Shown here one piece after another: positions 12,088 through 50,473 of a stretch of 64,000 nt of DNA (position 1 is its first letter; each line of letters begins with the position of its first letter). The stretch is from a bacterium (GTDB lineage: Bacteria > Bacillota_I > Bacilli_A > RF39 > UBA660): the NCBI GenBank assembly GCA_044432745.1, contig JAWXUH010000003.1, positions 27,283-91,282 on the forward strand, written 5' to 3'. The position numbers and the translations under genes are program-made. The notes under the pieces were generated by a model. That model saw nothing but the letters and a program-made list of their open reading frames with translations. It searched no databases and was not told the origin of the DNA.

Positions 12088-14647
12088 ATACAACTTTTTG
12101 TAATCTTTTTCTTTCATAAGTCATTTGTTTTTTTGTCGCATTTAATTTATCTAGTTCAAGTAATACTAATTTTTTCATATTTAGTAATTTCTTTAAATCT
12201 GATTTTGTTAATTTTAATGGATCATATGCAACATAATCTATATTTTTCTTTTTCAATTTTTCAACTGAACCATAACCATCAGATATAACTCTTGCACTTT
12301 CACTAAATGAACCTTTAGATAAAAGTATTTTTAAATTATGTGCAGAAACTTTAAGCGCGCATATTTTACCATTTGCAACAACAGCTTTCTTATCCTCTTT
12401 AAAAGTTTCTTTGAATTTATCAGCACCAGTTTTAACTAAAGGTTTTACTTTGTCGTTTACAAAAGGAACTACATTTTTTTCTACAAAAGGTTTTACACTT
12501 TCGTCTACAAAAGGTTTTATGTTTTCATCTACAAAAGGTTTGCTATATTCTTTTACTTCTTCTATTTTTTGAGTAGTATAAGGTTTTGCATTTTGATAAC
12601 CGTAGAAAAGAACTTCTTTACAAATAACAGCTGCTTCTTTTAAATATTCATAATATTCATTGTCATAAGTACTTAACTTTTCATCAAGTTTATCTAAATT
12701 TTCTTTAGATTTTTCAACATCTATAAATTTTATTTTAGCTAATATATTATCATAAAATTCTTTCATATCTATTTGAAATTGTTCTTCTTCTAATTCATCA
12801 TTTATTGCATCTATTTCTGCTTGTTTTTTCTCAGCTTCATATAACGCATGAAATTTTTTATTAAATTCTTCTGATATTGCACTAAAGTCTTCATTTGGTA
12901 AAAATTTACCTGCACAATTTTCTAATTCAGATACAGAATAACCGTATCCAACCTTAACATTTTTACTATCTATCTTATCAGTTAATTCAGATATAAATTC
13001 ATCTTTTTTTATTAAACTTTTATATTTTTGATAAAATTCATCTTCTGGTTCATCTCTAGTAAATTTTTCTTTTAGATTGTTATAACTAGAAACTAAGTTA
13101 TCTTTTACTGTTTTACCGCAAAATGATAAATTTGCTAACATTAACATATAAAAATTTTTAGAATCAGATACAGCTTTCATTCTTAATCTTCTTAATTCTT
13201 TTTTATTTTTTGTTGTTTTTATATTTCTTTGATGAACTTTTGCAGCAGCCATACGTTCATTTTCTTGTTTTTTACGAAGTAAAGCTCTTGCTTTAAGATT
13301 TTTTTCTTTTTCTTTTTCTTCTTTTTTAAGATTAAGTTTTTCTTTTTTTAGAAGATCATCTTCTAATTTTTGAAATTCTAAAATTTCTTTCTTTTCAAGT
13401 TTAAGTTGAGCTTTTACTATTGATTTTTCTTTTTGAGTTTCAATAAATTTAGCAAATGCTTCTTTTACTTGTTTTACTTTTGTTTCGAAGTTTAATTTTC
13501 TTAATTGTTTTTGATTAAATCTATGAGCAGCTTTTTTATCTGCTTCAACTTTCTTAAGAACTAAAGCTTTTTCCTTAGCAATCTTAGCATTTGCTTTTAA
13601 AACTTCTGCTTCTTTCATTTTTGTAGCTTTAATTTCTTCTTTATTTTTAAGTTCTTCTGCTTTACGAACTGCAGTTGTTTCTTTTAAAACTACTTTTTCT
13701 TCACGTTTAATAGCTGCAGCCTTTTTAGCTTCTGCTTCTTTACGTATAAGTTCTGCTTCTTTTATAATTCTTTTTTCTTCAAATTTTTTTGCCATTTCTT
13801 TTGTAGATCTTTTAATTGAATTTACTACAAAAGTTGTATTAGCTATTATATCAATGTAGAAAAATTCAACATTTTGACTAAAGTTATATTTTACTTTCTC
13901 AAATTCAGATTTCTTGCTTTCATCAAGTTTTTCAATAGTAAAATTGCTATTTTTAGAACTTTTCTTAACATCAGATTTAAATTTATTTAAAGTCTTTTTA
14001 ACATCTTTAATAAACATATGAGTACCTGGTTTTATAATATCTGTATTTAGCGCTTTAAGATCTGACATGAATGTTATAAAATGTTCAATCATGTTGTCAA
14101 TAGAATCTAAAGTTGTATCAAATACTACTTTAGTTGCTGCTGCTGTACTAGGTTTAACAACAGTTCTATTATATTCATTTAGTTCTTCTGTGATTATATT
14201 TATTTGTTTTTTTATTCTTTCTTCTACTTTAGATAGGTTATATCCTTTATTTTTTAATTTTTTCAAATCAACTTTTTTTATAGAAAAACTAAGTGAAGAT
14301 TTTAATTCATCTAATTTAGTAATTGTTTTTTCAAAAAACAATTTATTTTTAAGTAACTCTTCCTCTTCTTCTTTTCTAGTTTGAATTCTATCTGCTATAA
14401 GTAAATTCTTAATTCTTCTACTCTCTTCTTCCATTCTTCTTTGGAATTCAGCATCAACAACTATAAGGTCATATGATTCAGTAGTTTTTTCTCCAACGTA
14501 ACCATAACCAGGTTTAATATGTTCTGGTGGTATTTTTTCAAGTAAAGCTCCTATAAAAGGATCTTTGAATTCTTCTTTTTCATATTTTTTATGTAGACTT
14601 TCAGGTAGTAAAATTACATTATTATTATTCGCTATAACCTTTTTCAT
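12086..14647 (-). CDS. Large K/E-rich coiled-coil protein of unknown function
   Basis: 853 aa with a long charged heptad-like central region. A duplicated module (..KPGYGYVGE.. and ..KVGYGYSVSE..) and a C-terminal 8-aa tandem repeat. Confidence 0.6.
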   Translation of the reverse strand: MKKVIANNNNVILLPESLHKKYEKEEFKDPFIGALLEKIPPEHIKPGYGYVGEKTTESYDLIVVDAEFQRRMEEESRRIKNLLIADRIQTRKEEEEELLKNKLFFEKTITKLDELKSSLSFSIKKVDLKKLKNKGYNLSKVEERIKKQINIITEELNEYNRTVVKPSTAAATKVVFDTTLDSIDNMIEHFITFMSDLKALNTDIIKPGTHMFIKDVKKTLNKFKSDVKKSSKNSNFTIEKLDESKKSEFEKVKYNFSQNVEFFYIDIIANTTFVVNSIKRSTKEMAKKFEEKRIIKEAELIRKEAEAKKAAAIKREEKVVLKETTAVRKAEELKNKEEIKATKMKEAEVLKANAKIAKEKALVLKKVEADKKAAHRFNQKQLRKLNFETKVKQVKEAFAKFIETQKEKSIVKAQLKLEKKEILEFQKLEDDLLKKEKLNLKKEEKEKEKNLKARALLRKKQENERMAAAKVHQRNIKTTKNKKELRRLRMKAVSDSKNFYMLMLANLSFCGKTVKDNLVSSYNNLKEKFTRDEPEDEFYQKYKSLIKKDEFISELTDKIDSKNVKVGYGYSVSELENCAGKFLPNEDFSAISEEFNKKFHALYEAEKKQAEIDAINDELEEEQFQIDMKEFYDNILAKIKFIDVEKSKENLDKLDEKLSTYDNEYYEYLKEAAVICKEVLFYGYQNAKPYTTQKIEEVKEYSKPFVDENIKPFVDESVKPFVEKNVVPFVNDKVKPLVKTGADKFKETFKEDKKAVVANGKICALKVSAHNLKILLSKGSFSESARVISDGYGSVEKLKKKNIDYVAYDPLKLTKSDLKKLLNMKKLVLLELDKLNATKKQMTYERKRLQKVV
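12434..12552 (-). repeat. Five tandem 24-bp coding repeats (KPFVDExx)x5 inside the coiled-coil gene
   Basis: Plus strand shows reiterated CTACAAAAGGTTTTA(C/T)..., which translates as KPFVDENI KPFVDESV KPFVEKNV VPFVNDKV KPLVKTGA. Confidence 0.8.
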
Positions 14648-36370: not shown

Positions 36371-36390
36371 ACTAATATGACTTATTTTTA
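36359..36390. terminator. Bidirectional terminator
   Basis: AATAAGTCAT-AAACTAAT-ATGACTTATT plus a T-run, overlapping both stop codons. Confidence 0.65.
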
Positions 36391-38205
36391 TTTGTTAAAT
36401 ACTTCTTCAATCATTGATAATATTAAATCTTTTTTAAAAGGTTTAGCTATATAATTAGTAAATCCTAGTTTTTTATATTTAGATTCAGCATCCGATAAAG
36501 CATCCGCTGTAAGAGCTATAACTGGAATATTAAAATCTGGATTTTCTTTTAAACGAAGAAGCGTATCTTCTCCACCTAACTCAGGCATCATAATGTCCAT
36601 TAAAATTAAATCATAAGAATTATTTTTTAATTTATCAATACATTCCAACCCATTGTAACATTCATCAAGTATTAAACCAGTATCTGATAGAAATTTTTTA
36701 GCTACTTTTATATTTAGCGTATTATCATCTACTATTAAAACTTTTTTACCAGTTAAGTTTTTAGAAAAATTAACATTATTTATTGCAACTATTACTTCAT
36801 CTTCTTTTTTTTCTAATTGATCTATTTTCTGAGGTAAATTAACTACGAATAAAGAACCTTCACCAAACTTACTATTACAATTTATATTACCTTGCATAGA
36901 TTCAACTAATTTTTTAGTAATAGCAAGCCCAAGACCTACACCTTCTATTGTTGTATTTTTTTCAGCATCAAGTCTTTCAAACTTTGTAAATAATTTCTTT
37001 AAGAAATCTTCATTAATTCCCCTACCAGTATCTTCAACAGTTATACGTAAAAGAGCTATATCATCTTTATTTATTGTTTGAACGTTTATCTTAACATAAC
37101 CTTCTTTTGTATATTTTATAGCGTTACTAACTAAATTAGATATAATAGTTTTTACATGAGATGAATCTCCAAGTAATTTATAAGGAACGTCTTGTCCTAC
37201 AGTACAAGATAATTCTATATTCTTAGTACCTATTCTAACTCTATTAACATTTAGTATTTGTGTTAAAGCTACTCTTATATCATATGGTCTAGGATTTATT
37301 TCAAGCTTATCACTTTCAATTTTATTAATATCTAATATATTACCCACTATTTCAAGTAATGTTTGAGAAGCATTTAATATATCATTAAGATCTTCCTTCA
37401 TAGATTCATCTATATTTTGGCTTGAAACCATATTTTCACTTAAACCAACTATTGCATTCAAAGGAGTTCTAACTTCATGAGACATACTTGATAAGAAATC
37501 AGATTTAGCAGCATTAGCTTTCTCAGCTCTTTTTTTCTCAATATTTAAATTATCCATTAATTTAACATCTGGATTTTCTATAGTAAAGTACATTATTAGA
37601 TTAACAAAAGATAAGAATAATGATACTAATACTAAACTTGGTAAGTATAATCTACATACTAATAATGTTATAAGTAATATAATTAATATATACACTGGGC
37701 TATATTTTCTATTATTTAAATTTTTGATGTTATGTAAAAATACTACAACAATTAGAATTATATAGGTAAAAAAAGCTAAATAAGCTACATCCATAGCCAT
37801 ACCAGTTGCACTCATAATACCATCTTGATTTATAAGTTCTATTGGAGCAATAACAACAAAGAGCATAACTAAAAGGTTTATTAAACACGTTGATTTTGAA
37901 AACTTAGATAATTTTTTTTCAGGTACATTATAACTAATTAAATATACATAAAAGAATATACCCCAAGCATAATTTAATAAACACATAAGATCTAATTTAT
38001 TAAAAACAAATATCAAAAAAGATTCAGGTAGTGTATAGTTAAGAAATATAATTAATGAACAAAAGATAGAATCGAACAAAGCACAAATAATTAAAAAACT
38101 ATATATTTTTGTTTCATTATTTTTAACATTTTCTTTACTAAAAAACAAAAGAAATAACAAAACTGATATAGCTAACCCTACTAAAGGAAGCTGTAAATTA
38201 TACAT
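36388..38205 (-). CDS. Hybrid sensor histidine kinase / response regulator
   Basis: About six N-terminal TM helices, H-box FLSSMSHEVRTPLNAI, N/G boxes (SNAIKYT, DTGRGI, GVGLGLAI) and a C-terminal REC (VLIVDDN...LILMDIMMP...K). Confidence 0.85.
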   Translation of the reverse strand: MYNLQLPLVGLAISVLLFLLFFSKENVKNNETKIYSFLIICALFDSIFCSLIIFLNYTLPESFLIFVFNKLDLMCLLNYAWGIFFYVYLISYNVPEKKLSKFSKSTCLINLLVMLFVVIAPIELINQDGIMSATGMAMDVAYLAFFTYIILIVVVFLHNIKNLNNRKYSPVYILIILLITLLVCRLYLPSLVLVSLFLSFVNLIMYFTIENPDVKLMDNLNIEKKRAEKANAAKSDFLSSMSHEVRTPLNAIVGLSENMVSSQNIDESMKEDLNDILNASQTLLEIVGNILDINKIESDKLEINPRPYDIRVALTQILNVNRVRIGTKNIELSCTVGQDVPYKLLGDSSHVKTIISNLVSNAIKYTKEGYVKINVQTINKDDIALLRITVEDTGRGINEDFLKKLFTKFERLDAEKNTTIEGVGLGLAITKKLVESMQGNINCNSKFGEGSLFVVNLPQKIDQLEKKEDEVIVAINNVNFSKNLTGKKVLIVDDNTLNIKVAKKFLSDTGLILDECYNGLECIDKLKNNSYDLILMDIMMPELGGEDTLLRLKENPDFNIPVIALTADALSDAESKYKKLGFTNYIAKPFKKDLILSMIEEVFNK

Positions 38206-38212
38206 AAAACTC

Positions 38213-38842
38213 CTAACTAATTTCTAATATATCTTCTAAAGAAATTTCTTTTAATTCGTAAGACTTATCGTTAGATGATATAGAAATTATATGATTATCT
38301 AGCTCGGCAGAACTTATCATAAAACCATTATAACATAAACTTAATTTTTTGTAATCAAATTTTATATTATTAAAATCACTTGAAATACCTGTTCCAACCA
38401 TCTTCAAGTATGCTTCTCTTTTAGTCCAAACATTAGTAAGAAACACTAAATCAGTAAGCAAATCAGAGTATTCTTTTATTTCTATTTCATCAAAGATATA
38501 AGATACTAAATTTTCACTAAATTCGTTAACTTTTTCTACATCTACACCAATTTCATATTCACTAAAAGCTACTACTACCATATTATCAGTGTGACTTATA
38601 TTAAATTTAACAGGACAGTTATTTATAAATGGCTTACCATGTTCATTATATATAAAATTTAGATCTGATTTAATATTGTTAACTTCAAAGTATTTTTTTA
38701 TCAACAAAAAAGAAACTAAGCTATTTAATTTATCTTCTAATTTGATATAATTATTTATCTTAGTTTTTCTTTGATTTGTTATATTAAAATCTTTATCAAA
38801 TAATCTCAGCCACTGAGGTGTTATATAACAATAATAAATCAT
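38213..38842 (-). CDS. Sfp-type 4'-phosphopantetheinyl transferase
   Basis: HGKPF, FNISHTDN, GVDVEKV and WTKREAYLKMVG. One nt separates it from the NRPS stop. Confidence 0.85.
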   Translation of the reverse strand: MIYYCYITPQWLRLFDKDFNITNQRKTKINNYIKLEDKLNSLVSFLLIKKYFEVNNIKSDLNFIYNEHGKPFINNCPVKFNISHTDNMVVVAFSEYEIGVDVEKVNEFSENLVSYIFDEIEIKEYSDLLTDLVFLTNVWTKREAYLKMVGTGISSDFNNIKFDYKKLSLCYNGFMISSAELDNHIISISSNDKSYELKEISLEDILEIS

Positions 38843-38843
38843 T

Positions 38844-41800
38844 TTATTTCTTATCCCTTATTCTAACATTACTAGAAATTTTTAATTTCAAGTTAGTATA
38901 GTCATTAGATATTAGATTAGATGTTGGATTTTCTATATAACTATTTAAATATTGATATACGATTGTGTAGTTAGGATTATGAGTTTCTTCTATCTTAGCA
39001 TCTGCAAATTCAAAAAACTTCTCATCATCTATTACTTCAAATTCTACACCTTTATATCTTAAATAATCTGTTAATAATTCTATTGAATTATCATAAATAT
39101 GATAAGTTTCATTCCCAGTTAAATTAGAAAGCTTAATAATATTTTTTACTGTTTCATCAACAGACATAAGTTGAATCTTAGCATCTATTGCTGCTCTTGG
39201 GAAATATTTTATTTCTTTTATTGTATCAACAATCATTTTAAAAATACTTGTATCTTCATTTATTTGAAATTTATTGTCATAACTACGTTCATCAATGTAA
39301 CCAAGTCTATAAACATTTGAAGCAAGTCCTTTTTCCTTAGCTTTAGATATAAGTTCTTCTGCTTTAAATTTGCTCAACATATAAGCATCATGCGATACAT
39401 CTTGCCCTATATCTAGTCTATCTTCCGTAAATACTAAATTATTATTATTTTGAGTAGACATTCCTATCCCTGATATAGTAATAGTTGATACTTGATTTAA
39501 CACTGCACCATTAATTGCACTAATTTTCATTAAATTATATACAGCATCAACATTATCCTTCTTAGAATCTTCTATAGAAGCAAAATGACTAACATTAGCT
39601 GCAGAATTATATATAATTCCTACTTCTGAAATAAGTGTATTATATTGATCATCTGTTAAACCAAATTTTTCTTTAGACAAATCTCCTATTAATATATTAG
39701 TTCTAGATAAAATTTCTTCTGAATTATCAAAATAAAATTCCAAAGCATTTTTAAATTTTTCTACGTTTCTTACAATAACATAAACATTTTCGTTTCTATA
39801 AGTTAAATATTCTAAAATGTGTGAACCCAAATATCCACCTGCTCCTGTTACTAAAATTGCATTTTGTAAATTAATTTCTTTAATTTCTTCTGAAAAAATA
39901 TTTAAATCATATTCTTCTAAATTAATGTCTTTTTCTCTATTAGCTTTAATTTCTATCAACTCTGCAATAGAAGCAACAGTTACTTTTTTTGGTAAATACA
40001 TTAAATTTATTTTAACAGATAATTCCTTTTCTAATCTAGAAATCATATCAATTTTCATTTTTGAACTTCCACCTAAGGATTCAAAAGTTGAAGAAATACC
40101 AATTGGTTTAATATTAAGTATATCCTCCCATACAGAAATAATTGTTTCTTGAACACTCGTATAAGGTGCTTCATATATACTTTCTAAATGTTTTGAATAA
40201 TCGATTACTGGTAAAGAATTTCTATCTATTTTGCCTGAATTAGTTAATGGAATTTTATCAAGTTTAACAAAAATATGAGGAACCATATAAAGTGGTAATA
40301 TATTTTCCATATGATCTCTAAGTATATTTAAATCTATATCTGTATTTGATTCAAAGTAACCTACTAAGAGACTCTCTTCGTTATTCTTTTGTACGTTTAC
40401 AGAACATAATGCAATATTTTCAAAATTATTCATTACATTTTCTACTTCATCTATTTCAATTCTAAGTCCATTTATTTTTATTTGATTGTCATCTCTTCCA
40501 CAAAAAACAAGTTCACTCTCCATATTTACATAACCATAATCACCTGTTTTATAGAATCTATTACCATTTGAGTTATAGAATTTTTCTGAAGTAAGTTCCT
40601 CTTTATTATAATATCCAAGAGCTACACCAGTACCCATAACTACTATTTCTCCAATTTGATTTGTTGGCAAATCTATACCATGTTTATCTTTAATAAATAA
40701 TTTAAAATTCTTAATAGGTTTACCTACAGAGTGAGTAGAATTTTCTATCAATTTACCACAATTAAACACTGTTGTCTCAGTTGGTCCATATAAATAATAT
40801 ACAGATGGATTATCACATAAAATATTAACTTCATTTATTAAATCTTGACTAAGTTTTTCTCCACCAATAATTATTGTATTTAAATTATTTAATGACACAT
40901 CAGTATTAGAAATTATTTGTTTTAATCTAGTAGGAGTTAAATTTATAGCAAGTGATTCATTTTTTTGAATTAAATCTATAATAGAATTAACATTAACTAA
41001 TTCTTCATTAGTTGTTAAAATTAATGTTTTAGCATTTAATAAAGGAACCCAAACATCTTCTAAAAAAGCATCAAAACCCATGCATATTACAGATAACATA
41101 GAATCACTATCATTTAGTAAATATGAATTATTAATTCCCATATTTAAAACACCTTCATCTGGTATAACTGTTACTTTAGGAACACCTGATGATCCAGAAG
41201 TATGAATTGCACAAAATATATTATCTTTCTTATATTTTTGTCTAACAGGATTTTTTGTATCCAAATGCAATAATTTTATAATATCTATTTTTTCAACTTC
41301 ACTATTATTATAATTAGTACCATAAGTAAGCATTAAATTTGATTGAACTTCATTTATTAAAAAATCTATTCTATTTGTAGGATACTGCTCATCATCTATT
41401 ACAAAATATGCTTTACCTATTTTAAGCATAGCAATTATAGAAACAATAGTATAAAAATTTCTATTTCCTACAATAGGAACTATATCACTTTTAATTAAAT
41501 CCTCTTCTACAAAGTAATTAGCTAATGAATTTGCATAACTATTTAACTCACTATAAGTATAACTTTTACCGTCGTATACTAAAGCAATATTATCTGGATA
41601 ATTTTCTGCATTAGATTCAAAAACATCAATTGTACTTTGATCAAATTCGTTGAATTCTGAAGAATTAAACTCACTCATTATTTCATAATCTTTTTTACTA
41701 AATACTGATATATCGTCTACCTTCATATTCACATCATTCATAACTTGTTTTGCTATTACTAACAATCTATTAAACATATTTTCAATTTCACTTCTTGTAA

Positions 41801-42998
41801 ACAATTCAGTCTTATAATCTATATTAATTTGAAAACTACCAGTACTTGATCTATCATCTATATTAATAATTAAACTATTAACTATATTTTTATTAAAATA
41901 CCATTTTGTATCTACTTCATAATCAAACTTAGAATCTTCTTGTTTTTTTAATACTGATGCATTTTGATAAGAAACTACTATGTCAAATAAATCACCACTA
42001 AAATTGAATTTTTCATTTAATTCAGAAGTTAAATGTTCAAGAGGATAAGTTTGTCTTTTGAACAAATTTCTCTTTTGAATTGCTAATTTGTTTACAACAT
42101 CTAAATAAGTATCTTCATCAGATATATTTACTTTTAACACTTGTGGATTTACAAACATACCACAAATATTTCTCTCAGCACTACCTTTTCTATTTAAAGT
42201 AGGAGAACCAAAAACTACGTCATCTTTATTAGATAACCTTTTTATGTATAAAGCCACTAAAGCTTCAAAAAATATTGATTCATATATACCATTATCTGAA
42301 CAATATTTTTTAATTTCTGCTGCGTCCTCTAAACTATAATTATAGGTAAAACGATCAGCTTCAATACTGTCAGTAATTTTATTAGAAAAGTTAAAAACTT
42401 CCACTTCGTCTTTAAATAAATTACCAAAATATTCTTTATCTTCTAAATATTTATCACTGCTTAAATATTTTTCTTCTCTCTCTATAAATTTTAAATAAGA
42501 ATTATTAGAGTCTACTAACTCCTCACCTAGTAATAACTTTTCATATGCACTTCTTATTTCTCCGCCTGTTATACCAAGTGAAAATGCATCATATATAATA
42601 TGACTAGTTTTTATATATACATCAAATTTATTATCTGAATGCTTTATCAATTTAAAAGTAACTAAATCATCAGTTAATTTTTCTACTGTCCATAGCTCGA
42701 ACATTTCTTCCTTCTCTTCTTCACTAAGTTCAGTAAAATCATATTCTTCTATGTTTTTATTTTTATAATCAGACACATACTGATATGTAGTGTTATCTTT
42801 TTCTAATAATTTAATTCTCATTCCATCACTATTTCTAATAACGTAATTAATAGCTTCATTTAACAAATCATATTTATAAATAAGACCATCTAAAGATAAT
42901 TTCCCAGATAAATATGTGATGTTAGTTTCTTGATGATTTTTTCCCATCATCAAAACAGATTTTTGTGGTTCTGTTAATTCATACAATTTATTGTTCAT
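38844..42998 (-). CDS. Single-module non-ribosomal peptide synthetase, C-A-T-R architecture
   Basis: C domain SHIIYDAF (aa 132-139). A domain AIHTSGSSGVPKV (597-609), YGPTETT (737-743), YKTGD (816-820), GRDDNQIKINGLRIE (834-848) and SGKIDR (921-926). PCP LGGSS (974-978). Thioester reductase VTGAGGYLG (1050-1058) with YMLSK (1206-1210). Confidence 0.9.
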   Translation of the reverse strand: MNNKLYELTEPQKSVLMMGKNHQETNITYLSGKLSLDGLIYKYDLLNEAINYVIRNSDGMRIKLLEKDNTTYQYVSDYKNKNIEEYDFTELSEEEKEEMFELWTVEKLTDDLVTFKLIKHSDNKFDVYIKTSHIIYDAFSLGITGGEIRSAYEKLLLGEELVDSNNSYLKFIEREEKYLSSDKYLEDKEYFGNLFKDEVEVFNFSNKITDSIEADRFTYNYSLEDAAEIKKYCSDNGIYESIFFEALVALYIKRLSNKDDVVFGSPTLNRKGSAERNICGMFVNPQVLKVNISDEDTYLDVVNKLAIQKRNLFKRQTYPLEHLTSELNEKFNFSGDLFDIVVSYQNASVLKKQEDSKFDYEVDTKWYFNKNIVNSLIINIDDRSSTGSFQINIDYKTELFTRSEIENMFNRLLVIAKQVMNDVNMKVDDISVFSKKDYEIMSEFNSSEFNEFDQSTIDVFESNAENYPDNIALVYDGKSYTYSELNSYANSLANYFVEEDLIKSDIVPIVGNRNFYTIVSIIAMLKIGKAYFVIDDEQYPTNRIDFLINEVQSNLMLTYGTNYNNSEVEKIDIIKLLHLDTKNPVRQKYKKDNIFCAIHTSGSSGVPKVTVIPDEGVLNMGINNSYLLNDSDSMLSVICMGFDAFLEDVWVPLLNAKTLILTTNEELVNVNSIIDLIQKNESLAINLTPTRLKQIISNTDVSLNNLNTIIIGGEKLSQDLINEVNILCDNPSVYYLYGPTETTVFNCGKLIENSTHSVGKPIKNFKLFIKDKHGIDLPTNQIGEIVVMGTGVALGYYNKEELTSEKFYNSNGNRFYKTGDYGYVNMESELVFCGRDDNQIKINGLRIEIDEVENVMNNFENIALCSVNVQKNNEESLLVGYFESNTDIDLNILRDHMENILPLYMVPHIFVKLDKIPLTNSGKIDRNSLPVIDYSKHLESIYEAPYTSVQETIISVWEDILNIKPIGISSTFESLGGSSKMKIDMISRLEKELSVKINLMYLPKKVTVASIAELIEIKANREKDINLEEYDLNIFSEEIKEINLQNAILVTGAGGYLGSHILEYLTYRNENVYVIVRNVEKFKNALEFYFDNSEEILSRTNILIGDLSKEKFGLTDDQYNTLISEVGIIYNSAANVSHFASIEDSKKDNVDAVYNLMKISAINGAVLNQVSTITISGIGMSTQNNNNLVFTEDRLDIGQDVSHDAYMLSKFKAEELISKAKEKGLASNVYRLGYIDERSYDNKFQINEDTSIFKMIVDTIKEIKYFPRAAIDAKIQLMSVDETVKNIIKLSNLTGNETYHIYDNSIELLTDYLRYKGVEFEVIDDEKFFEFADAKIEETHNPNYTIVYQYLNSYIENPTSNLISNDYTNLKLKISSNVRIRDKK

Positions 42999-43265
42999 TG
43001 TTACTCTCTCTTTTTTGATTTTTATTTTACTCTAGCTAAAATTAAAAGTCAATCAATATAACACAAAGTATACATAAAAAAAAACATAATTAGTATTATA
43101 TTTTTAATTTTTTTGTATTTCTATTATTATACTAGTTTCAGTTTCTTTTAATTTAATTTCTTCATTATCTTCGATATCAATTATCAATTGTTTCTCATTG
43201 TTTGTAATGACAGCCATAAAATCACCTTTTCTATATTTTAAATAATAACAAAAAAATAATATAAG

Positions 43266-43296: not shown

Positions 43297-43539
43297 TTAG
43301 TTTTTTAAATTACCATCTCCTACACCTAGAAAAAGGTAATCCATAGATACTTTAGCAAAATTACATAGTTCTATTGCTTTATCAAGAGATAAAGATCCTT
43401 TGCCATTGATAACTAGTCCCATGTTTTGACCACTAGTACCTATTGCCCTGCCTAGTTGAACTTGACTCATTCCATCTAACTTCTCTACTCTGATTTTTTC
43501 TATTCTTTTTCCAATTTCTATTTTTCTACTAACTTCCAT
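43297..43539 (-). CDS. XRE-family HTH regulator
   Basis: 80 aa with HTH_3 (IGKRIEKIRVEKLDGMSQVQLGRAIGTSGQNMGLVINGK). Confidence 0.8.
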   Translation of the reverse strand: MEVSRKIEIGKRIEKIRVEKLDGMSQVQLGRAIGTSGQNMGLVINGKGSLSLDKAIELCNFAKVSMDYLFLGVGDGNLKN

Positions 43540-43606
43540 ATTTTACCTCCTATATATAAAAATAAAATATCATAAAAAAATATTTTTCATTAAAACCTTT
43601 TATGTC

Positions 43607-43641
43607 AAACTAGTAGAACTACCAGTTCTACCTTCTAGTTT
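43607..43641. promoter_or_regulatory. 35-bp nested palindrome in the divergent XRE / response-regulator promoter region
   Basis: AAACTAG-TAGAAC-TACCA-GTTCTA-CCTT-CTAGTTT. It overlaps the predicted -35 of the response-regulator promoter. Confidence 0.5.
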
Positions 43642-43656
43642 CATAATATCGATTTA

Positions 43657-43665
43657 TGATATAAT
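43657..43665 (+). promoter_or_regulatory. Extended -10 (TGaTATAAT) for the response-regulator gene
   Basis: TG at 43657-43658 and TATAAT at 43660-43665. AAGGAG SD lies 8 nt before the ATG at 43689. Confidence 0.55.
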
Positions 43666-43688
43666 ATTTTAAAGAAGGAGATAATACT

Positions 43689-44477
43689 ATGGAACCTATG
43701 AATATATTAATATTAGAAGATGATGAAAAAGAAGTAAAAAAATTTACAAGTTGTATTGCATCAAGAGATGAAATCAACTTGATAAGCACTACCAATTCTT
43801 TAGAAGATGCTTTACATATAATCAAAAATAACTTTATAGAAGGAATTGTAGTAGATATAGAATTAAACAAAGGACTTGGTGGATCAGGATTAGATTTCTT
43901 AAAAGAACTTCAAAATTTAGATATAGATTTTAAACCTATTTTAATAGTAACAACTAATAATGAAGCAGACACTGTATATAATGCTTGTAAATCCCTAGGA
44001 GTAGATATGTTATTTCACAAAAGTAAAGAAGATTACGAACCAACATTTGTACTAAATCAATTTATAACATTAAGACCATTTATAAAACGTAATACTAAAC
44101 AAAATATAAAAAGCAAATTAGAAACTGAGATAGAAAGACAAAAAAGAATATCTGAATACATTGAAGAAGAAATGAATTTGATAGGATTACCACCTCACTT
44201 AAAAGGATCTAAATATATAAAAGAAGCTATTGAGTACTTAATTAACAATCAAAATCATGAGGAAAATTACTACACGGCATACTTAGAAGAAAAATATAGA
44301 ATAAGAAAAGGTTCTATTAGTACATCTATGCAAGATTCTATTAACAATGCGTGGAGAAATACACCTGAAGAAGATATATTAGAACATTTTAAAGCAAACA
44401 TTTCTTATTCAAAAGGAACTCCTCTACCCGCACAATTTATACATTATTACGTTGAAAAAATACAAAGAAGAATATAA
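43689..44477 (+). CDS. Response regulator with a REC domain and a Spo0A_C-like DNA-binding domain
   Basis: REC (ILILEDDE..VVDIEL..). The C-terminus IGLPPHLKGSKYIKEAIEYL...SISTSMQDSINNAWRN parallels Spo0A VPAHIKGYLYLREAI...SRVERAIRHAIEVAW (from memory). Confidence 0.7.
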   Translation: MEPMNILILEDDEKEVKKFTSCIASRDEINLISTTNSLEDALHIIKNNFIEGIVVDIELNKGLGGSGLDFLKELQNLDIDFKPILIVTTNNEADTVYNACKSLGVDMLFHKSKEDYEPTFVLNQFITLRPFIKRNTKQNIKSKLETEIERQKRISEYIEEEMNLIGLPPHLKGSKYIKEAIEYLINNQNHEENYYTAYLEEKYRIRKGSISTSMQDSINNAWRNTPEEDILEHFKANISYSKGTPLPAQFIHYYVEKIQRRI

Positions 44478-44499
44478 CACTTAAAAGTGTTATTTTTTT
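44476..44499 (+). terminator. Terminator after the response-regulator gene
   Basis: AACAC-TTAAAA-GTGTT followed by ATTTTTTT. Confidence 0.55.
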
Positions 44500-44634
44500 A
44501 TGTCTTTTTTTATTAGTTATACTTTTTTAACTATTTTTTTTACATGTAATCTCATCAAAGAAAATGCTTATTTCCTATAAACTAACCTTAAGGCTAGAGG
44601 GTATCTAGTCAAGAATAAAAAGGTGGTGAAAAGA

Positions 44635-44676
44635 ATGCAAGGGTTTTTCAAATATTTATCTGGATTTATACTTTAA
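44635..44676 (+). CDS. Stand-alone 13-codon ORF (MQGFFKYLSGFIL), a candidate signalling or leader peptide
   Basis: Strong SD AAAGGTGGTGA 5 nt before the ATG. Its own terminator lies 13 nt after the stop. It sits between the response-regulator and kinase genes. Confidence 0.4.
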   Translation: MQGFFKYLSGFIL

Positions 44677-44689
44677 TATATTTTTAAGA

Positions 44690-44718
44690 AATCAAATGAA
44701 TTTTATTTGATTTTTTTA
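44690..44718 (+). terminator. Rho-independent terminator after the 13-codon ORF
   Basis: AATCAAAT-GAATTTT-ATTTGATT followed by T5. Confidence 0.65.
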
Positions 44719-44733
44719 TTGGAGGAATATATA

Positions 44734-44769
44734 TTGTTTTTTTTATATTTTTTTGTTAGAATATATTAA
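44734..44769 (+). CDS. Possible TTG-initiated 11-codon ORF (MFFLYFFVRIY) just upstream of the kinase gene
   Basis: GGAGG (44721-44725) lies 8 nt before TTG 44734. The stop is 11 nt before the kinase ATG. T-rich DNA could produce this by chance. Confidence 0.15.
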   Translation: MFFLYFFVRIY

Positions 44770-44780
44770 TTGAGGATACT

Positions 44781-46235
44781 ATGGAATATTTTAACAAAAT
44801 TATATCTTTTTTTATTATGTATAATTGTTCTTATTACCTATTTAATAAAAGTTTAAATTTAACTAAAAAAAAAGATTGTAAGGTTTACAAAATAGTTTTT
44901 TCTTTTTTTCTATTATCTTTACTTCATGTGATTTTGCAACCATTTTTAAAAAAATTATTATCACTTATACTTACAAATATTATTTTTATAATAATAATTT
45001 TTTTCGATAATAAACATCATAATATAAAATTCAAAAAAATAATATTAAATGGAATATCATTTTATTTAGTGTGTTATTTTATAAGGTATATTGCATTATT
45101 AATATTTTCTATTCCTATATATAATATATATAATAGAACTACACCATTGTTTATTGACTTTAGAATTACAGATTTAATGACAATATATTTTGTATATAAA
45201 TTTTCAAATTCAAAAAAATTCAAAAAGAAAATAAATATTATAAAGGATACACCAGAGCAGGATGATTTACTGCTAATAATTATATTTTTTTTATTGATAT
45301 CCATTACCATTTATTTATTTTGGATGTTTCATAATGAAAAAAAACTTTTTTTTGATTTGTTTGATTTGTACTTATTTCTACTAATCATTTTCCTATCTAT
45401 ATTCTTCTTTACGTATCTACGAAAGCAAATAAGTGATAGATATAAAGATATAGCTCAAAATAGAACTATAGATAATTTAAATAATATTATTAAAGAAAAA
45501 GATAAAGAAATATCAAGACTCACTGACATAGCTAAACTAGCGCATAAAACAAATCATGAACTTGATATACTTAAAAATAAAATTAATAAACTTAACTCTA
45601 AGGATATGAAAAAAGAGCTTAACAATATAGAAAATTCTTTTAGAAAAGGTATTGATAAAAAAAATAGTTCAAGTTTATTACAAGAGACTAAAGTAAAAAC
45701 AATAGATGATACTTTAAGATACTTTCAAGATAAATGTAAAACAAAAGATATAAACTTTACAATTAAAATAAATGGTAGTGTAAATTATATGACGGATAAC
45801 CTTATAGATGTTAATAAATTAAATACAATATTATCTGATCATTTAAAGAATGCTATAATTTCTATTGAGAATACTGAAGAAAAGTTTAAAAGTATATTAT
45901 TAGTAATAGGAGAACTTGAAAACAATTATGGAATCAAGTTTTATGATACAGGAATTAATTTCAAACCTACTACCCTACTTTCTCTAGGAACTAAACCTAT
46001 AACAACGCATAAAAATAAAGGTGGTACTGGATTAGGAATGCTTACAACTTTTCAAGTTGCTAAAGAATGTAAGGCTAGCATAGAAATAGAAGAAAATGTT
46101 AAAAAAGATTATGAATATAATAAAATTATTAGTATTATATTTGATGATTTAAATGAATTTAGAATTAAATCTTATAGAAATGACAAACTTAAATTAAAAA
46201 ATAAAAACAAAAAAATCAAATTTATTAAGAAATGA
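44781..46235 (+). CDS. Multi-TM GHKL sensor histidine kinase with AgrC/ComD-like topology
   Basis: About 6-7 TM helices in aa 1-215, a coiled linker, a candidate H-box LAHKTNHELD, an N-box SDHLKNAI and a G-box KGGTGLGM. Confidence 0.65.
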   Translation: MEYFNKIISFFIMYNCSYYLFNKSLNLTKKKDCKVYKIVFSFFLLSLLHVILQPFLKKLLSLILTNIIFIIIIFFDNKHHNIKFKKIILNGISFYLVCYFIRYIALLIFSIPIYNIYNRTTPLFIDFRITDLMTIYFVYKFSNSKKFKKKINIIKDTPEQDDLLLIIIFFLLISITIYLFWMFHNEKKLFFDLFDLYLFLLIIFLSIFFFTYLRKQISDRYKDIAQNRTIDNLNNIIKEKDKEISRLTDIAKLAHKTNHELDILKNKINKLNSKDMKKELNNIENSFRKGIDKKNSSSLLQETKVKTIDDTLRYFQDKCKTKDINFTIKINGSVNYMTDNLIDVNKLNTILSDHLKNAIISIENTEEKFKSILLVIGELENNYGIKFYDTGINFKPTTLLSLGTKPITTHKNKGGTGLGMLTTFQVAKECKASIEIEENVKKDYEYNKIISIIFDDLNEFRIKSYRNDKLKLKNKNKKIKFIKK

Positions 46236-46317
46236 TTATAGTTAAATCATTTTTTTATTTGAAATTTTATAAAAAAAGTGATATATTAGTAACTATTAAA
46301 AAAGGGGAAAATATAAA

Positions 46318-47943
46318 ATGAGAAAGAGATTATTAAATGATATGCATTTAAAAAGTAATGATACTTTAACAATAACCGAGGAGGAATATTCAAATTTTTT
46401 AAAAAGACCTACTACAACTTTAACAAGAGTGGAAAATTTTATTAAAGTAGTATCTAATGATGAAAATTATAATCAAATATTAAATTATTACAAAAATGAA
46501 AATTTAGAATTAAAAATATCATATATAAAAAAAATACAAGATAAAGATATAATACTATACGATTCTATTAAAAATTTAAAAGAATATATTAAAGATTCTT
46601 TTGAAGCTTTTGATTTAACAACTGAAGAGAGAAACAGAATTGATCATTTAAACAAAATAATATATATTGATCATTATTTTGAAAACAAGAAAGATGATAT
46701 ATACGAAATAACTATAGATAATATGTTAGTACGTGTACCTGTAAGATTAATTAACTTGGTATTAACACTTGGTAAAGAAGATTTAGAAACATTACTAAAT
46801 GATAAAGATGTATCTGGAATTAAAAAAGAACATTTGATGCATGCTACGTATGCATATTGTGAAAAATATGTAATAAATAAATATGAAATACCTAGTAAAA
46901 TAGAAAAAAGAATATTTAATATAAAAATGCATCAATTAGTAGATACACAATCATTAAATTTATATTTAGAAAATACAGATACTTTATATAAAAAACTAAC
47001 ACTAAATACTAAGTTAAAAGAAGCAATATTAAGTGGTATGCCAGAAGATTATAACTTACTAGAAAAATCTATACATATGTATTTAAATATGTGTAATTTA
47101 TTAACATATGATGAAGCATATTATGCATCAGATGATAAAAATAGAGAAAAATCTAAACATACTAAATTAGAGTATATAGAAGAAATATCACTAGATAACA
47201 ATAAAATCGTATGTTTTGAATTTATATTAATGTATACGCACTTGCTAGATGAATTAGGAATTAAATTCATAACATATTACCAAAATATGGAAGAAATAAA
47301 CTATGGTAAAGGTCATGTAAATGCTAGTTTTAGAATAGATAAATTTTTAATAAATGTAGATCCACTTACATCAATACATCAAGGAGATATTGTGCAAGTA
47401 AAATTAAATCAACCAATATCAGGAATAATCTGTGAAAATTTTAATAACAATACAAATGATGAGTTAGTTAGCACTATAGATAACGTATATAATAATTTTT
47501 TAGAAAATAATAATAGTAAGTTAAATAAAAAACTAATTTCTGAAGATTTTCAAAAATTAGTATTTAAAGAAAAATTAATATTATTTAACGAAAAAATAAA
47601 AGAGAACAAATTAACTAACATGGATTTTATGTCATACTTAATTCAATTAAAAAAAGTGTTATTTACTCAAAAAGAGCATAAAAGCAATATATCAATGTTA
47701 ATGATAATTGAAAATATAAATGAAAATATAAATAGTAGAATGATTGTGTCTATTAATGACGGTACGTTCTTATATAATATCGAAGATACTATATATTATA
47801 TTAGTGATGATTTTGGCAATTTAATTGAAATTAAAAAAGAAGCAATAGAAGATAATTTTAATACAGGTATTTATATGTATACAAACGAATATAATAACAA
47901 AATTCCTGGAATAATCGAAGGTAAAGGAAGAAAATTTAAGTAA
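46318..47943 (+). CDS. Cytoplasmic protein with a transglutaminase-like (papain-fold) Cys-His-Asp core
   Basis: VCFEFILMYTHLLDELGIKF (Cys) ... GKGHVNASFRIDKFLINVDP (His, Asp). Promoter-like TTGAAA-17-(TG)aTATATT and a GGGGA SD lie upstream. Confidence 0.45.
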   Translation: MRKRLLNDMHLKSNDTLTITEEEYSNFLKRPTTTLTRVENFIKVVSNDENYNQILNYYKNENLELKISYIKKIQDKDIILYDSIKNLKEYIKDSFEAFDLTTEERNRIDHLNKIIYIDHYFENKKDDIYEITIDNMLVRVPVRLINLVLTLGKEDLETLLNDKDVSGIKKEHLMHATYAYCEKYVINKYEIPSKIEKRIFNIKMHQLVDTQSLNLYLENTDTLYKKLTLNTKLKEAILSGMPEDYNLLEKSIHMYLNMCNLLTYDEAYYASDDKNREKSKHTKLEYIEEISLDNNKIVCFEFILMYTHLLDELGIKFITYYQNMEEINYGKGHVNASFRIDKFLINVDPLTSIHQGDIVQVKLNQPISGIICENFNNNTNDELVSTIDNVYNNFLENNNSKLNKKLISEDFQKLVFKEKLILFNEKIKENKLTNMDFMSYLIQLKKVLFTQKEHKSNISMLMIIENINENINSRMIVSINDGTFLYNIEDTIYYISDDFGNLIEIKKEAIEDNFNTGIYMYTNEYNNKIPGIIEGKGRKFK

Positions 47944-47982
47944 AAAAAAAGACATATATTTTAAATTTTATATGTCATTTTT
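47942..47982. terminator. Bidirectional terminator
   Basis: A9-GACATATA-N10-TATATGTC-ATTTTT between convergent genes. Confidence 0.6.
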
Positions 47983-49001
47983 CCAAATCTACTAGTTGGT
48001 ACAAAACCAGCTTCAGCAGATACTAATTCTTCTAGCCTGTTTACAACAGTACCACAAGTTAAACCTACTGTATCTGGTCTCTCTATAACTAAATTAGTAT
48101 TAGGTTCACCTATTACACTCCAGTTATTTCTGTCAAAGTCATTCTCACTATAGACTTTACCAATACACTCAGATTCTATATTTATTCCCTCTTTAGTCTT
48201 TGTAGTTACAACCGCACTCATTCCAGTACACATTCCCCTTTTAATATCCATTCCAAGCGTTGTTGAATGTATATCTCCATCAAAATATGTAGGAATGCAT
48301 TTTTGAGTTTGAGAAACTACTGTTAATCCTAAGGCATCACAAAGCCATCCATTAACACTCCACATATAACTTGGTAAAAAATCACCTTTAGCTATAAGTT
48401 CGTCTCTCTCTTCAACTGAGATATTATCAGCTGAAGCAATTTTTTCTTCAAATTCTTCTGTTGTATAACCAGAACCATGAGCTTGCGCTAAAGCAATACC
48501 ATAATCCTCTACATTATAAGAACTTGATCCTTTGATTTCTTTAATTTCTCCTGTTGCACCAGCAATAGTAGTAATTAAATTACCCCAGAAAGCATCTTGA
48601 TATCCACTACCTGTGATTGTACAATTGTTAAGTTTAGCCAATGTATCTATTTTTCTAGTTAACTCTGGGTTACTATTAAATGGATAAAAAGCTTCCTCAC
48701 ACGTAGTAATAGCATTAATACCTAGTTTAGCACATAACATCAGAGCTTCTTCGCAATCACTTAGTAAGCTCATAGTAGTAATTATACAAACATCTGGCTT
48801 TACACTTTGAAGCATAGTTTCTGCGTCCTGAACTGAAACAATTTTTATATTTTTATCTTCAGTACCAAGAATCACACTAATATCTTTTCCTATTAAATCT
48901 TCATTAACATCTACTGCACCAACTACCTCATAACCCTTTTTTAAGGCAAATTTCATAGTGTACAAAGACATTTTACCACATCCATATTGAACAATTTTCA
49001 T
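47961..49001 (-). CDS. DapB-fold NAD(P)-dependent amine dehydrogenase (2,4-diaminopentanoate dehydrogenase-like)
   Basis: N-terminal Rossmann MKIVQYGCGKMS, about 346 aa, overall resemblance to the Ord/AmDH family as recalled. Confidence 0.5.
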   Translation of the reverse strand: MKIVQYGCGKMSLYTMKFALKKGYEVVGAVDVNEDLIGKDISVILGTEDKNIKIVSVQDAETMLQSVKPDVCIITTMSLLSDCEEALMLCAKLGINAITTCEEAFYPFNSNPELTRKIDTLAKLNNCTITGSGYQDAFWGNLITTIAGATGEIKEIKGSSSYNVEDYGIALAQAHGSGYTTEEFEEKIASADNISVEERDELIAKGDFLPSYMWSVNGWLCDALGLTVVSQTQKCIPTYFDGDIHSTTLGMDIKRGMCTGMSAVVTTKTKEGINIESECIGKVYSENDFDRNNWSVIGEPNTNLVIERPDTVGLTCGTVVNRLEELVSAEAGFVPTSRFGKMTYKI

Positions 49002-49112
49002 AACTTTTTCCCTCCTAGTATAAGATTAACATTAAAAAAATTATATATCTACTATTTACACAAAAAAATACAATTACTTTACAAAAAAAAATATAAATGT
49101 AAATTTATATTT

Positions 49113-49550
49113 TTATCTTTTGTTTAAATTACTTATTTTATGATTTTCAATTGTTTCATCTATTTTTTTTATGTCATCTTCACTAAATATACCTGGAACA
49201 AACTTATTAATATTCTTAGCTCTTATAGTTAAATCTCTATAAACTATAAATTCTGTACTTTCTATATTCTCTGCTATTTGACTAACAGTTAAATTTTCCT
49301 CAATATATAAAGAAATTACTCTCAACACTCTATTTTGAACAGTTTCTTTCTTCAAAGAATCTGGCAATCTTTCTTCCATAGCATTACGAACTTCGTTATA
49401 AAGTTTAGGATTATAATCAGATAAACGATTTACTAAATCATTTCTTATTGTAATATGAGATTTGTCATAACAACCTGCTATCTCCCTTAAACTAGAACCA
49501 GACAAATACATATTTGCTATTTCAACCAAATACCCAGAATCATCACGCAT
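49113..49550 (-). CDS. SpoIIID-like HTH regulator with two tandem HTH units
   Basis: SLREIAGCYDKSHITIRNDLVNRLSDYNPKLYNEVRNAM parallels SpoIIID VIAKEFGVSKSTVHKDLTERLPEINPDLANEVKEIL (from memory). A second unit is LTVSQIAENIESTEFIVYRDL. Confidence 0.55.
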   Translation of the reverse strand: MRDDSGYLVEIANMYLSGSSLREIAGCYDKSHITIRNDLVNRLSDYNPKLYNEVRNAMEERLPDSLKKETVQNRVLRVISLYIEENLTVSQIAENIESTEFIVYRDLTIRAKNINKFVPGIFSEDDIKKIDETIENHKISNLNKR

Positions 49551-49975: not shown

Positions 49976-50473
49976 ATGAAAAAATATTTATTATTAACAC
50001 CATTTCTAATGTTTGTATCTGCTTTTCTATTACACTTTATATATGACATCTTTAATCAAAATATTTTAATAGGATTCATATCACCTATTAACGAAAGTAT
50101 ATTTGAACATACTAAATTAATTCTTACTCCGCTTACTATATGTTATGGTTATTATTATATTAAAAATAAAAATTATATAAATTCTGAGAAATATATGTTT
50201 GTAAGTTTAATATCTATATTACTAGGAATAATATCAGTTCCTATGTATTATTATACTTATACACAGGCTCTTGGAATCAATGTAATGATTATAGATATTA
50301 TAATTACATACTTATCTTTAATAACTGCTAATATCTTCTTTTTAAACTATTATAACAATTACGAATTTAAAATAAAAAAAAATATTACTATAATTATATA
50401 TATAGTAATATTCATCTTTTATATTTATGCAAGTTTATATCAAATAAACTTACCAATTTTTATACCTAATTAA
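49976..50473 (+). CDS. Polytopic membrane protein (DUF6512-like)
   Basis: 165 aa. The INESIFEHTKL motif resembles that family as recalled. Confidence 0.4.
   Translation: MKKYLLLTPFLMFVSAFLLHFIYDIFNQNILIGFISPINESIFEHTKLILTPLTICYGYYYIKNKNYINSEKYMFVSLISILLGIISVPMYYYTYTQALGINVMIIDIIITYLSLITANIFFLNYYNNYEFKIKKNITIIIYIVIFIFYIYASLYQINLPIFIPN

Follow-up and report, generated by a model that had tools for sequence, protein, structure and literature searches.

The window analysed here comprises 64,000 nt of a bacterial contig (JAWXUH010000003.1 of assembly GCA_044432745.1, forward strand positions 27,283 to 91,282). An original prediction, made from the sequence alone, had grouped a response regulator gene, a 13-codon open reading frame (ORF), a multi-transmembrane (TM) kinase gene and the gene of a 541-aa protein into a peptide-signalling-like cassette next to a non-ribosomal peptide synthetase (NRPS) gene. 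The unit that is conserved in related loci differs from those four genes: it consists of a divergent gene of the XRE family, the regulator gene, the mini-ORF and the kinase gene. We consider it fairly probable that this four-part module is a leaderless peptide-pheromone two-component circuit without a dedicated processing or export gene.

The locus lies in very AT-rich DNA (about 24% GC), and its four plus-strand units are placed as originally described. The regulator (262 aa; 43689-44477, +) has the predicted REC and Spo0A_C domains, each above its Pfam cutoff (Response_reg, 38.8 bits; Spo0A_C, 49.9 bits), and its gene ends in an intrinsic terminator (44474-44499, +; 8-bp hairpin and T-run, −6.1 kcal/mol, z = −3.7). 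The mini-ORF (44635-44676, +; translation MQGFFKYLSGFIL) does possess the strong Shine–Dalgarno (SD) sequence and the terminator of its own that had been attributed to it, namely a GGTGGTG at 44622-44628 (+), 6 nt upstream of the start, and a hairpin with a T-run at 44686-44717 (+; −9.5 kcal/mol, z = −3.6). The 3′ arm of this terminator overlaps the −35 box of a SigmaA-type promoter identified by promoter scan (TTGATT-17-TATATT; 44707-44735, +), upstream of the gene for the 484-aa membrane histidine kinase (44781-46235, +). Divergent from the regulator gene is a small gene for an XRE-family helix-turn-helix (HTH) protein of 80 aa (43297-43539, −; Pfam HTH_3, 24.4 bits).

A pattern scan of GTDB species genomes gave at least 134 genomes with a relative of the kinase, from which 80 loci were kept; gene content was counted over 70 non-redundant species-level loci, the window included. 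In an exhaustive profile search with the kinase, the number of clusters (50% identity) was 694 at E ≤ 1e-30 and rose to 1030 at E ≤ 1e-10, so that the kinase's apparent status as a near-orphan (5 clusters by word-indexed search) was discarded as an artefact of low sensitivity. The carriers are nearly all metagenome-assembled genomes (MAGs) of uncultured gut Clostridia, from human, rabbit, goat, deer, ruminant and termite samples, organisms with an essentially uncharted social behaviour. Regulator and kinase genes are found in 70/70 loci and a divergent XRE homolog lies upstream of the regulator gene in 61/70, whereas every other neighbour occurs in 16 loci at most; the XRE gene thus belongs to the module as its fourth conserved gene. 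No AgrB-like protein, ABC transporter, exporter, protease, modification enzyme or immunity gene was found among the conserved neighbours in the 70 loci, and there is no TPR-type intracellular receptor among the conserved partners, which are the XRE protein, the REC-Spo0A_C regulator and the kinase only. Three further arrangements (L051, L074 and L084) have XRE, peptide and kinase genes and no regulator gene; the peptide gene still stands directly 5′ of the kinase gene.

An SD-preceded ORF of 10–20 codons is present on the forward strand in 70/70 regulator-kinase gaps but on the reverse strand in only 2/70, and such ORFs have a background density of 0.071 per kb-strand, i.e. about 0.04 expected per gap. 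When the small ORF with the strongest SD is taken from each gap, its length is always 12–18 codons. The SDs are near-perfect, mostly GGTGGTG, with duplex energies of −9 to −17 kcal/mol, and a hairpin followed by a T-run is found 3′ of the mini-ORF in 53/70 loci. The conservation of a short ORF between the regulator and kinase genes, on which the original prediction depended, is therefore seen across about 70 species-level loci. These ORFs are shorter than gene callers usually report and were uncalled in every fetched locus. According to the family alignment the peptides have no leader sequence; they contain 18.5% Trp and 1.1% Cys and share the core [DE]-x-[FLI]-[WLC]-[EKR]-W-[LIV]-[SR]-[YRH]-W-[LMF]-G. 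In this alignment, two aliphatic columns have an entropy of 0.00 and 0.11 bits at codon position 2 and of 1.4–2.0 bits at positions 1 and 3, a pattern that points to selection for the encoded residue rather than for the RNA sequence. We conclude that the mini-ORF is a genuine gene, selected at the peptide level. FFKYLSGFIL of the window aligns with FWKWLSYWLG, which makes the window peptide a Trp-less variant of the core; a second Trp-less variant is that of L007 (MSGFIKFLVGLLG). A known RNA element in the gap was considered and dropped: at E ≤ 1 Rfam returned no family for the regulator-kinase region, the single match being a chance-level snoRNA within the regulator ORF.

The relation between peptide and kinase was analysed in seven independent close pairs of loci (L072/79, L054/67, L063/88, L010/56, L017/18, L080/89 and L037/41). 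Within pairs, the XRE gene, both upstream intergenic regions, the regulator gene and the part of the kinase gene coding for the DHp and CA domains are 86–100% identical (mostly ≥90%), whereas identity is 50–82% in the mini-ORF, 24–74% in the spacer between mini-ORF and kinase gene and 36–83% in the first 660 nt of the kinase gene. Sliding windows (three profiles) gave 98–100% identity for kilobases on either side of a block of about 750 bp at about 60%, the edges of which are sharp: it extends from the mini-ORF start to about 600 nt into the kinase gene, where the TM region ends. At the protein level, 0–7% of the residues differ in the regulator and 0–14% in the catalytic part of the kinase, as against 39–67% in the sensor and 31–71% in the peptide. 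In partial Mantel tests, peptide and sensor distances were correlated given regulator and catalytic part (r = 0.20, P = 0.0005), whereas the correlation of peptide and regulator controlling for the others was not significant (r = 0.03). Nearly all loci come from MAGs, but recurrence of the same boundaries in seven lineages makes an assembly artefact unlikely. Peptide and sensor vary together like quorum-sensing 'pherotypes'; mosaics of this kind are the hallmark by which agr specificity groups and the pherotypes of comCD and blpCH are recognised. We regard it as the strongest in-silico evidence that the peptide would be the ligand of the kinase.

These data bear on the possibility that the mini-ORF encodes a leader peptide and that ribosomes stalling at its Trp codons attenuate kinase expression. 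A short ORF with many Trp codons and a terminator after it, both preceding the kinase gene, would suit such a device, and the E. coli trpL leader (14 residues) is of a size similar to the mini-ORF product. We nevertheless find attenuation hardly credible, as acidic, basic, aliphatic and terminal Gly positions are conserved too, the versions in the window and in L007 have no Trp at all, a near-consensus kinase promoter lies downstream of the terminator, the kinase gene has no link to Trp metabolism and there would be no reason for peptide and sensor to diversify together.

The predicted physical properties of the peptides raise two other alternatives. The peptides are predicted to form amphipathic alpha-helices, with a maximum of the hydrophobic moment at 100–110 degrees (mean z of 1.9 versus their own shuffles), their net charge is mostly between −2 and +1, and the predicted energy of partition into the membrane interface is favourable (about −4 kcal/mol). 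The peptide might thus be a cis-acting modulator that resides in the membrane of its producer and exerts feedback on the kinase with no cell-cell communication, as do MgrB for PhoQ and SaeQ for SaeS. The lack of a leader and of any conserved exporter or processing gene would fit such a role; an amphipathic, interface-seeking peptide could reach a 7-TM sensor with short loops from inside, and the peptide gene stays close beside the kinase gene where the regulator gene is missing as well. Yet 12–18 residues are too short to span a membrane, and sharply bounded hypervariable peptide-sensor cassettes set in otherwise identical DNA are typical of signal-receptor pairs under social selection (agr, comCD, blpCH) and are unexpected for a private housekeeping modulator; we therefore hold this explanation to be unlikely, though deserving of attention. 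Less likely still in our estimation is that the peptide is primarily a membrane-active effector, similar to phenol-soluble modulins (PSMs) or leaderless bacteriocins, whose production is controlled or autoinduced by the kinase and regulator in the manner of NisK/NisR and nisin, with signalling in second place. Trp-rich amphipathic helices with strong predicted interfacial affinity are compatible with this, the very strong SD and separate terminator imply high output, and PSMs and leaderless bacteriocins also are made without leaders. But the peptides are not cationic, they are shorter than known PSMs and leaderless bacteriocins, and no immunity or transporter gene is conserved; moreover, co-variation with the sensor points to specific recognition of the peptide, which fits a dual role but not that of a pure effector.

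The original prediction of a GHKL kinase with 6-7 TM helices and a topology like that of AgrC or ComD was borne out in its architecture. In the window protein, Pfam HATPase_c scored 21.6 bits, under the gathering cutoff of 26.4, and HATPase_c_5 (PF14501), the AgrC-type catalytic signature, was unmatched. The window protein belongs to a divergent subfamily which no HisKA-type model matches. Among 100 members scanned with Pfam, HATPase_c was matched in 61 (E < 0.01), HATPase_c_5 in 9 and HisKA in none. The H-box (SHKTNH), N-box (DHxKN), G1 (DTG) and G2 (GGTGxG) motifs are common to five homologs, and H255, D389, G415, G417 and G419 are invariant across the 100-sequence family alignment. When a profile of these 100 sequences was compared with the Protein Data Bank (PDB), the DHp and CA domains aligned to ZraS (E = 7e-7), H255 falling on the phospho-accepting His of the ZraS H-box, and the sporulation kinase KinB (3D36) aligned as well (E = 2e-6). 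The AlphaFold2 (AF2) model (pLDDT 66) has seven N-terminal TM helices (2-24, 33-52, 58-75, 82-116, 124-143, 160-185 and one starting at 187) joined by very short loops, a long DHp helix and an alpha/beta catalytic domain, and the alternation of K-rich loops, read directly from the sequence, is consistent with an N-out 7-TM topology. Foldseek matched this model to 82 histidine kinases at E ≤ 1e-3, including BceS, HK853, YycG, AgrC and KinB. As judged from sequence and model, the 484-aa protein is a 7-TM histidine kinase (TM region, about residues 1-215; DHp domain with H255; GHKL ATP-binding domain) whose catalytic apparatus is intact.

All of 65/65 family members keep the REC residues E10, D11, D56, T89 and K111 of the regulator, so that its phospho-acceptor pocket is intact. 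The C-terminal domain can be aligned with Spo0A (structures 1FC3 and 1LQ1); the two differ, however, in the recognition helix, GSISTSMQDSINNAW in the regulator and SRVERAIRHAIEVAW in Spo0A, and the Spo0A equivalog model TIGR02875 gave 64.8 bits against a cutoff of 200. By these measures the regulator is not Spo0A itself and would be a Spo0A paralog-like protein. For its residues 2-187 (43689-44250), chain 9qih_A, named 'SenB', gave the best PDB sequence match (E = 3e-8), which runs past REC into the linker. The XRE members are 80–130 aa long and consist of the HTH only; presumably they act as repressors in the module.

The region between the XRE and regulator genes (43540-43688, both strands) would, from promoter scan and direct reading, hold divergent promoters. 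Candidates are TTGACA-18-AATATT on the minus strand for the XRE gene and an extended −10 (TGaTATAAT, 43657-43665) on the plus strand for the regulator gene; TTATGGTATATTA, an element related to the latter, was found in 25/61 loci. Near-consensus kinase promoters (TTGATTATCT...TATATAAT) recur across the family, TATTGATT being kept in 35/70 loci and TATATAAT in 43/70. The control region of the peptide gene in the window (44493-44634, +) contains T-tract-phased repeats, a −10-like element (ATGCTTATTT), a 5′ stem-loop (44592-44610, +; −8.9 kcal/mol, z = −2.2) and the SD. In most loci, tandem boxes spaced by 10 bp occur upstream of the peptide gene (e.g. TTTTTCGACAT, TTCACCAT and TCTACCAT). Family-wide self-similarity is 0.33 at offset 10 versus a background of 0.11, with an echo of 0.21 at offset 20; a crude box pattern is 3-fold enriched upstream of the peptide gene, with a spacing of exactly 10 bp in 13/17 cases. 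The array suggests that the regulator activates the peptide gene, presumably by binding there. After the boxes comes a long inverted repeat, possibly an operator, the 3′ arm of which ends in TG(G/A)TATTTTTTTAT, 30–60 nt 5′ of the start codon. We read the element TG(G/A)TA(T/A)TTT, found downstream of the 10-bp repeat array, as the putative extended −10 of a regulator-activated promoter. Identification of the repeats with canonical Spo0A 0A boxes was rejected, since the motif varies between lineages and the recognition helix is unlike that of Spo0A; some repeats read TTCGACA, the reverse complement of TGTCGAA, and are 0A-like at most. An extreme form of these 10-bp phased repeats is seen in L011 (9210-9300), where about eight tandem 10-bp units (CACGAACATG / TACGAACATA) lie between the regulator stop and the peptide gene.

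From the above, we infer by sequence analysis each step of a circuit: translation, release, sensing, phosphotransfer and DNA binding. The peptide would be made from a short, strongly translated transcript of its own, would most likely leave the cell with no dedicated processing and would partition into the membrane interface, where the kinase, of whose transmembrane sensor it would be the cognate ligand, could sense it. The kinase would then phosphorylate the regulator at D56, and the phosphorylated regulator would bind the 10-bp phased array before the peptide promoter and raise synthesis of the peptide. This would close an autoinduction loop, as AgrA does at P2/P3 or ComE at comC, while the kinase and regulator genes would remain under constitutive-looking promoters of their own. 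The role of the XRE protein and the downstream regulon are conjectural parts of the model.

Several points weigh against this model: (i) the loci were gathered by homology to the kinase, so that presence of the kinase is true by construction; (ii) the window holds an outlying member of the family, with a peptide that has no Trp and degenerate upstream repeats; (iii) with no leader and no conserved exporter, protease or modification enzyme, release of the peptide is left unexplained; (iv) a terminator, an attenuator or an XRE operator would be other readings of the inverted repeat that covers the putative peptide promoter and (v) the regulator, presumed to bind the repeats, has a recognition helix unlike that of Spo0A.

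Variant arrangements were also observed. In L047 (238-590) two tandem peptide genes (MREWFNAFWKWMSYWAG and MREWFQALMKWISYWI) precede one kinase gene. L082 (4321-10536) carries the module twice in tandem: the regulator-kinase gap of the first copy is 10 nt and contains no peptide gene, so that its kinase may be an 'orphan receptor', and the second copy has the peptide MSFWEWLAYWLK. L011 has the appearance of a mobile or prophage-like region (serine recombinase, many small ORFs) and also encodes a second, stand-alone Spo0A_C protein of 118 aa (13984-14340). The phage- or plasmid-borne, arbitrium-like system that this locus suggested was dropped, no match being found in IMG/VR viral contigs, INPHARED phages or PLSDB plasmids.

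The original grouping implied that the regulator, the mini-ORF, the kinase and the 541-aa protein (46318-47943, +) form one cassette, in which the 541-aa protein would process the peptide and which would control the NRPS (38844-42998, −; domains C-A-T-R). In the window, the genes are adjacent and on one strand. The hairpin 3′ of the kinase gene is unconvincing (z = −0.09), so that read-through from the kinase gene into the 541-aa gene is possible, and the 541-aa protein may have the proposed Cys-His-Asp core: C299, H333 and D348 are invariant among its four known homologs, in a transglutaminase-like sequence pattern, and three separate families of transglutaminase-like Cys proteases are among the top fold matches, all weak (S. 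pyogenes TglA, 9crn; 3ISR; vasohibins). These matches come from a weak AF2 model (pLDDT 63.5) for which Foldseek found nothing significant (best E = 0.22), and there was no match in Pfam or NCBIfam. Its identity as a transglutaminase-like Cys protease is therefore plausible but unproven, and no function is assigned to it. As a cassette member, however, it did not hold up: it and the NRPS are missing from 69/69 other loci. Next to the module it was met only in contigs of the window lineage (L012 and L014), and its four homolog clusters (word-indexed search) all lie in other, unrelated contexts, one of them a mobile element. The 541-aa gene has its own promoter-like site (TTGAAA-17-TATATT, with TG), as does the NRPS gene. 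Finally, the gene for a multi-pass DUF6512 membrane protein, which directly follows the kinase gene in 15/70 loci (e.g. L091, 6778-7353) and is possibly its ancestral downstream neighbour, is displaced from it by 3.7 kb in the window (49976-50473, +; 165 aa, 113 bits), suggesting an insertion made up of the 541-aa gene and three small genes on the reverse strand. DUF6512 could be an export or immunity accessory factor, or could merely reflect conserved synteny. Given all this, we think a single cassette comprising the 541-aa protein and controlling the NRPS very improbable; the 541-aa protein and the NRPS are lineage-specific neighbours and not components.

Control of the NRPS by the module, proposed in the original prediction on the ground of proximity, thus failed the co-occurrence check (NRPS in 0/69 other loci), and although possible in this particular genome it has no supporting evidence. 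Doubt also falls on the proposed XRE-NRPS operon, as the XRE gene belongs to the conserved module and the interval between the two genes holds a TTGACC-17-TATTAT promoter, a 37-codon ORF and a second promoter-like site. The 37-codon ORF (43104-43217, −; MAVITNNEKQLIIDIEDNEEIKLKETETSIIIEIQKN) is acidic, is served by the TTGACC-17-TATTAT promoter and a GGTGA SD, and is among the called genes of the Logan contigs L012, L013 and L015. Directly 3′ of the NRPS gene lies a gene for a 4′-phosphopantetheinyl transferase (38213-38842, −), and also downstream is one for a hybrid histidine kinase (36388-38205, −; HisKA, HATPase_c and REC), so that the NRPS has a different two-component-type neighbour of its own. 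The putative insertion downstream of the 541-aa gene (47961-49550, −) encodes a 346-aa protein resembling 2,4-diaminopentanoate dehydrogenase (Ord), with 121 bits against a cutoff of 400 for NF040740, and a 145-aa protein with two SpoIIID-like HTH stretches. In three other contigs a downstream ORF encoding 74–75 aa, missing in the window, overlaps the stop codon of the 541-aa homolog (L001, 11728-11955; L002, 5796-6020; L003, 2170-2394). In L001 the neighbours of the pair include an integrase, a Mob_Pre relaxase and an AAA_25 gene, and the pair may thus be cargo of a mobile element.

It was stated in the original prediction that the locus resembles peptide quorum-sensing loci and matches none of the known types, as there is no AgrB, ComAB-type exporter or RNPP receptor and the output domain is Spo0A_C rather than LytTR. 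This agrees with what we found. As in Agr of staphylococci, clostridia and others, a small peptide gene adjoins genes for a 6-7-TM histidine kinase and a response regulator, the hypervariable peptide-sensor block lies within conserved flanks, as in specificity groups, and direct repeats, presumed regulator sites, precede a promoter that in the module would be autoinduced. Unlike Agr, the module has no AgrB, its 12–18-residue peptide has neither leader nor tail, and the Cys content makes a thiolactone ring impossible in most members; besides the different output domain, HATPase_c_5 is found in few of the kinases and an XRE partner is conserved. With ComCDE and BlpCHR of streptococci the module shares a pherotype diversity concentrated in the peptide and the receptor N-terminus; it would also share linear, unmodified amphipathic peptides sensed by a polytopic histidine kinase and positive autoregulation of the pheromone gene via direct repeats. 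The module differs from these systems in that it has no double-glycine leader and no ComAB/BlpAB ABC exporter with a C39 peptidase, its peptide is half the size of the competence-stimulating peptide, its regulator is not of the LytTR type and its genes stand in the order regulator, peptide, kinase, each under its own promoter. With ComQXPA of Bacillus it has in common a short, Trp-centred putative pheromone, a multi-TM kinase presumed to sense it and the strong polymorphism of peptide and receptor N-terminus. The differences are the lack of a ComQ isoprenyl transferase, a peptide that does not derive from a precursor of about 55 residues and a regulator of the Spo0A_C type instead of the NarL type.

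Other systems are similar in single respects. Spo0A and the clostridial orphan sporulation kinases share the REC and Spo0A_C architecture, and KinB (3D36) is among the closest solved kinases, but the TIGR02875 score of the module regulator is low, its recognition helix is different and it has a dedicated kinase and peptide gene. MgrB-PhoQ and SafA-PhoQ have, as is proposed for the module, a tiny ORF acting on a membrane histidine kinase and probably transcribed under the same system; the modulators there are TM proteins of 47–65 residues and are not hypervariable. From RRNPP/Rgg systems the module is set apart by the lack of a TPR receptor. In our rating it would be peptide-sensing two-component quorum sensing in which every component is unusual. 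No description of such a module was found in the searchable literature, subscription-only papers being outside that coverage, and the family, widespread in uncultured gut Clostridia, is apparently undescribed. That the mini-ORFs fall short of what gene callers usually report and that the kinases escape Pfam annotation may explain why it was missed.

A wider proposition is that these loci represent a widespread and unrecognised class of Gram-positive signalling, characterized by an unmodified, leaderless, Trp-rich peptide of 12–18 residues that needs no machinery of its own for processing or export, by 7-TM kinases of a new subfamily that sense it, by a Spo0A-like readout and by pherotype diversification over hundreds of lineages of uncultured gut Clostridia; to us it seems evenly poised between true and false. 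In Firmicutes, peptide quorum sensing is generally believed to rely on machinery for processing and export (Agr, Com/Blp, ComQXPA) or else on the peptide's re-import to a cytoplasmic receptor (RRNPP). If our interpretation is correct, the module would add a third, minimal design, with the gene product of 12–18 residues, from one of the smallest known bacterial genes, as the signal itself, and the module would show the DNA-binding domain of Spo0A in use outside sporulation. As no modification would be needed, the peptides could be synthesised directly, and the near-isogenic pherotype pairs would offer ready-made comparisons of specificity.

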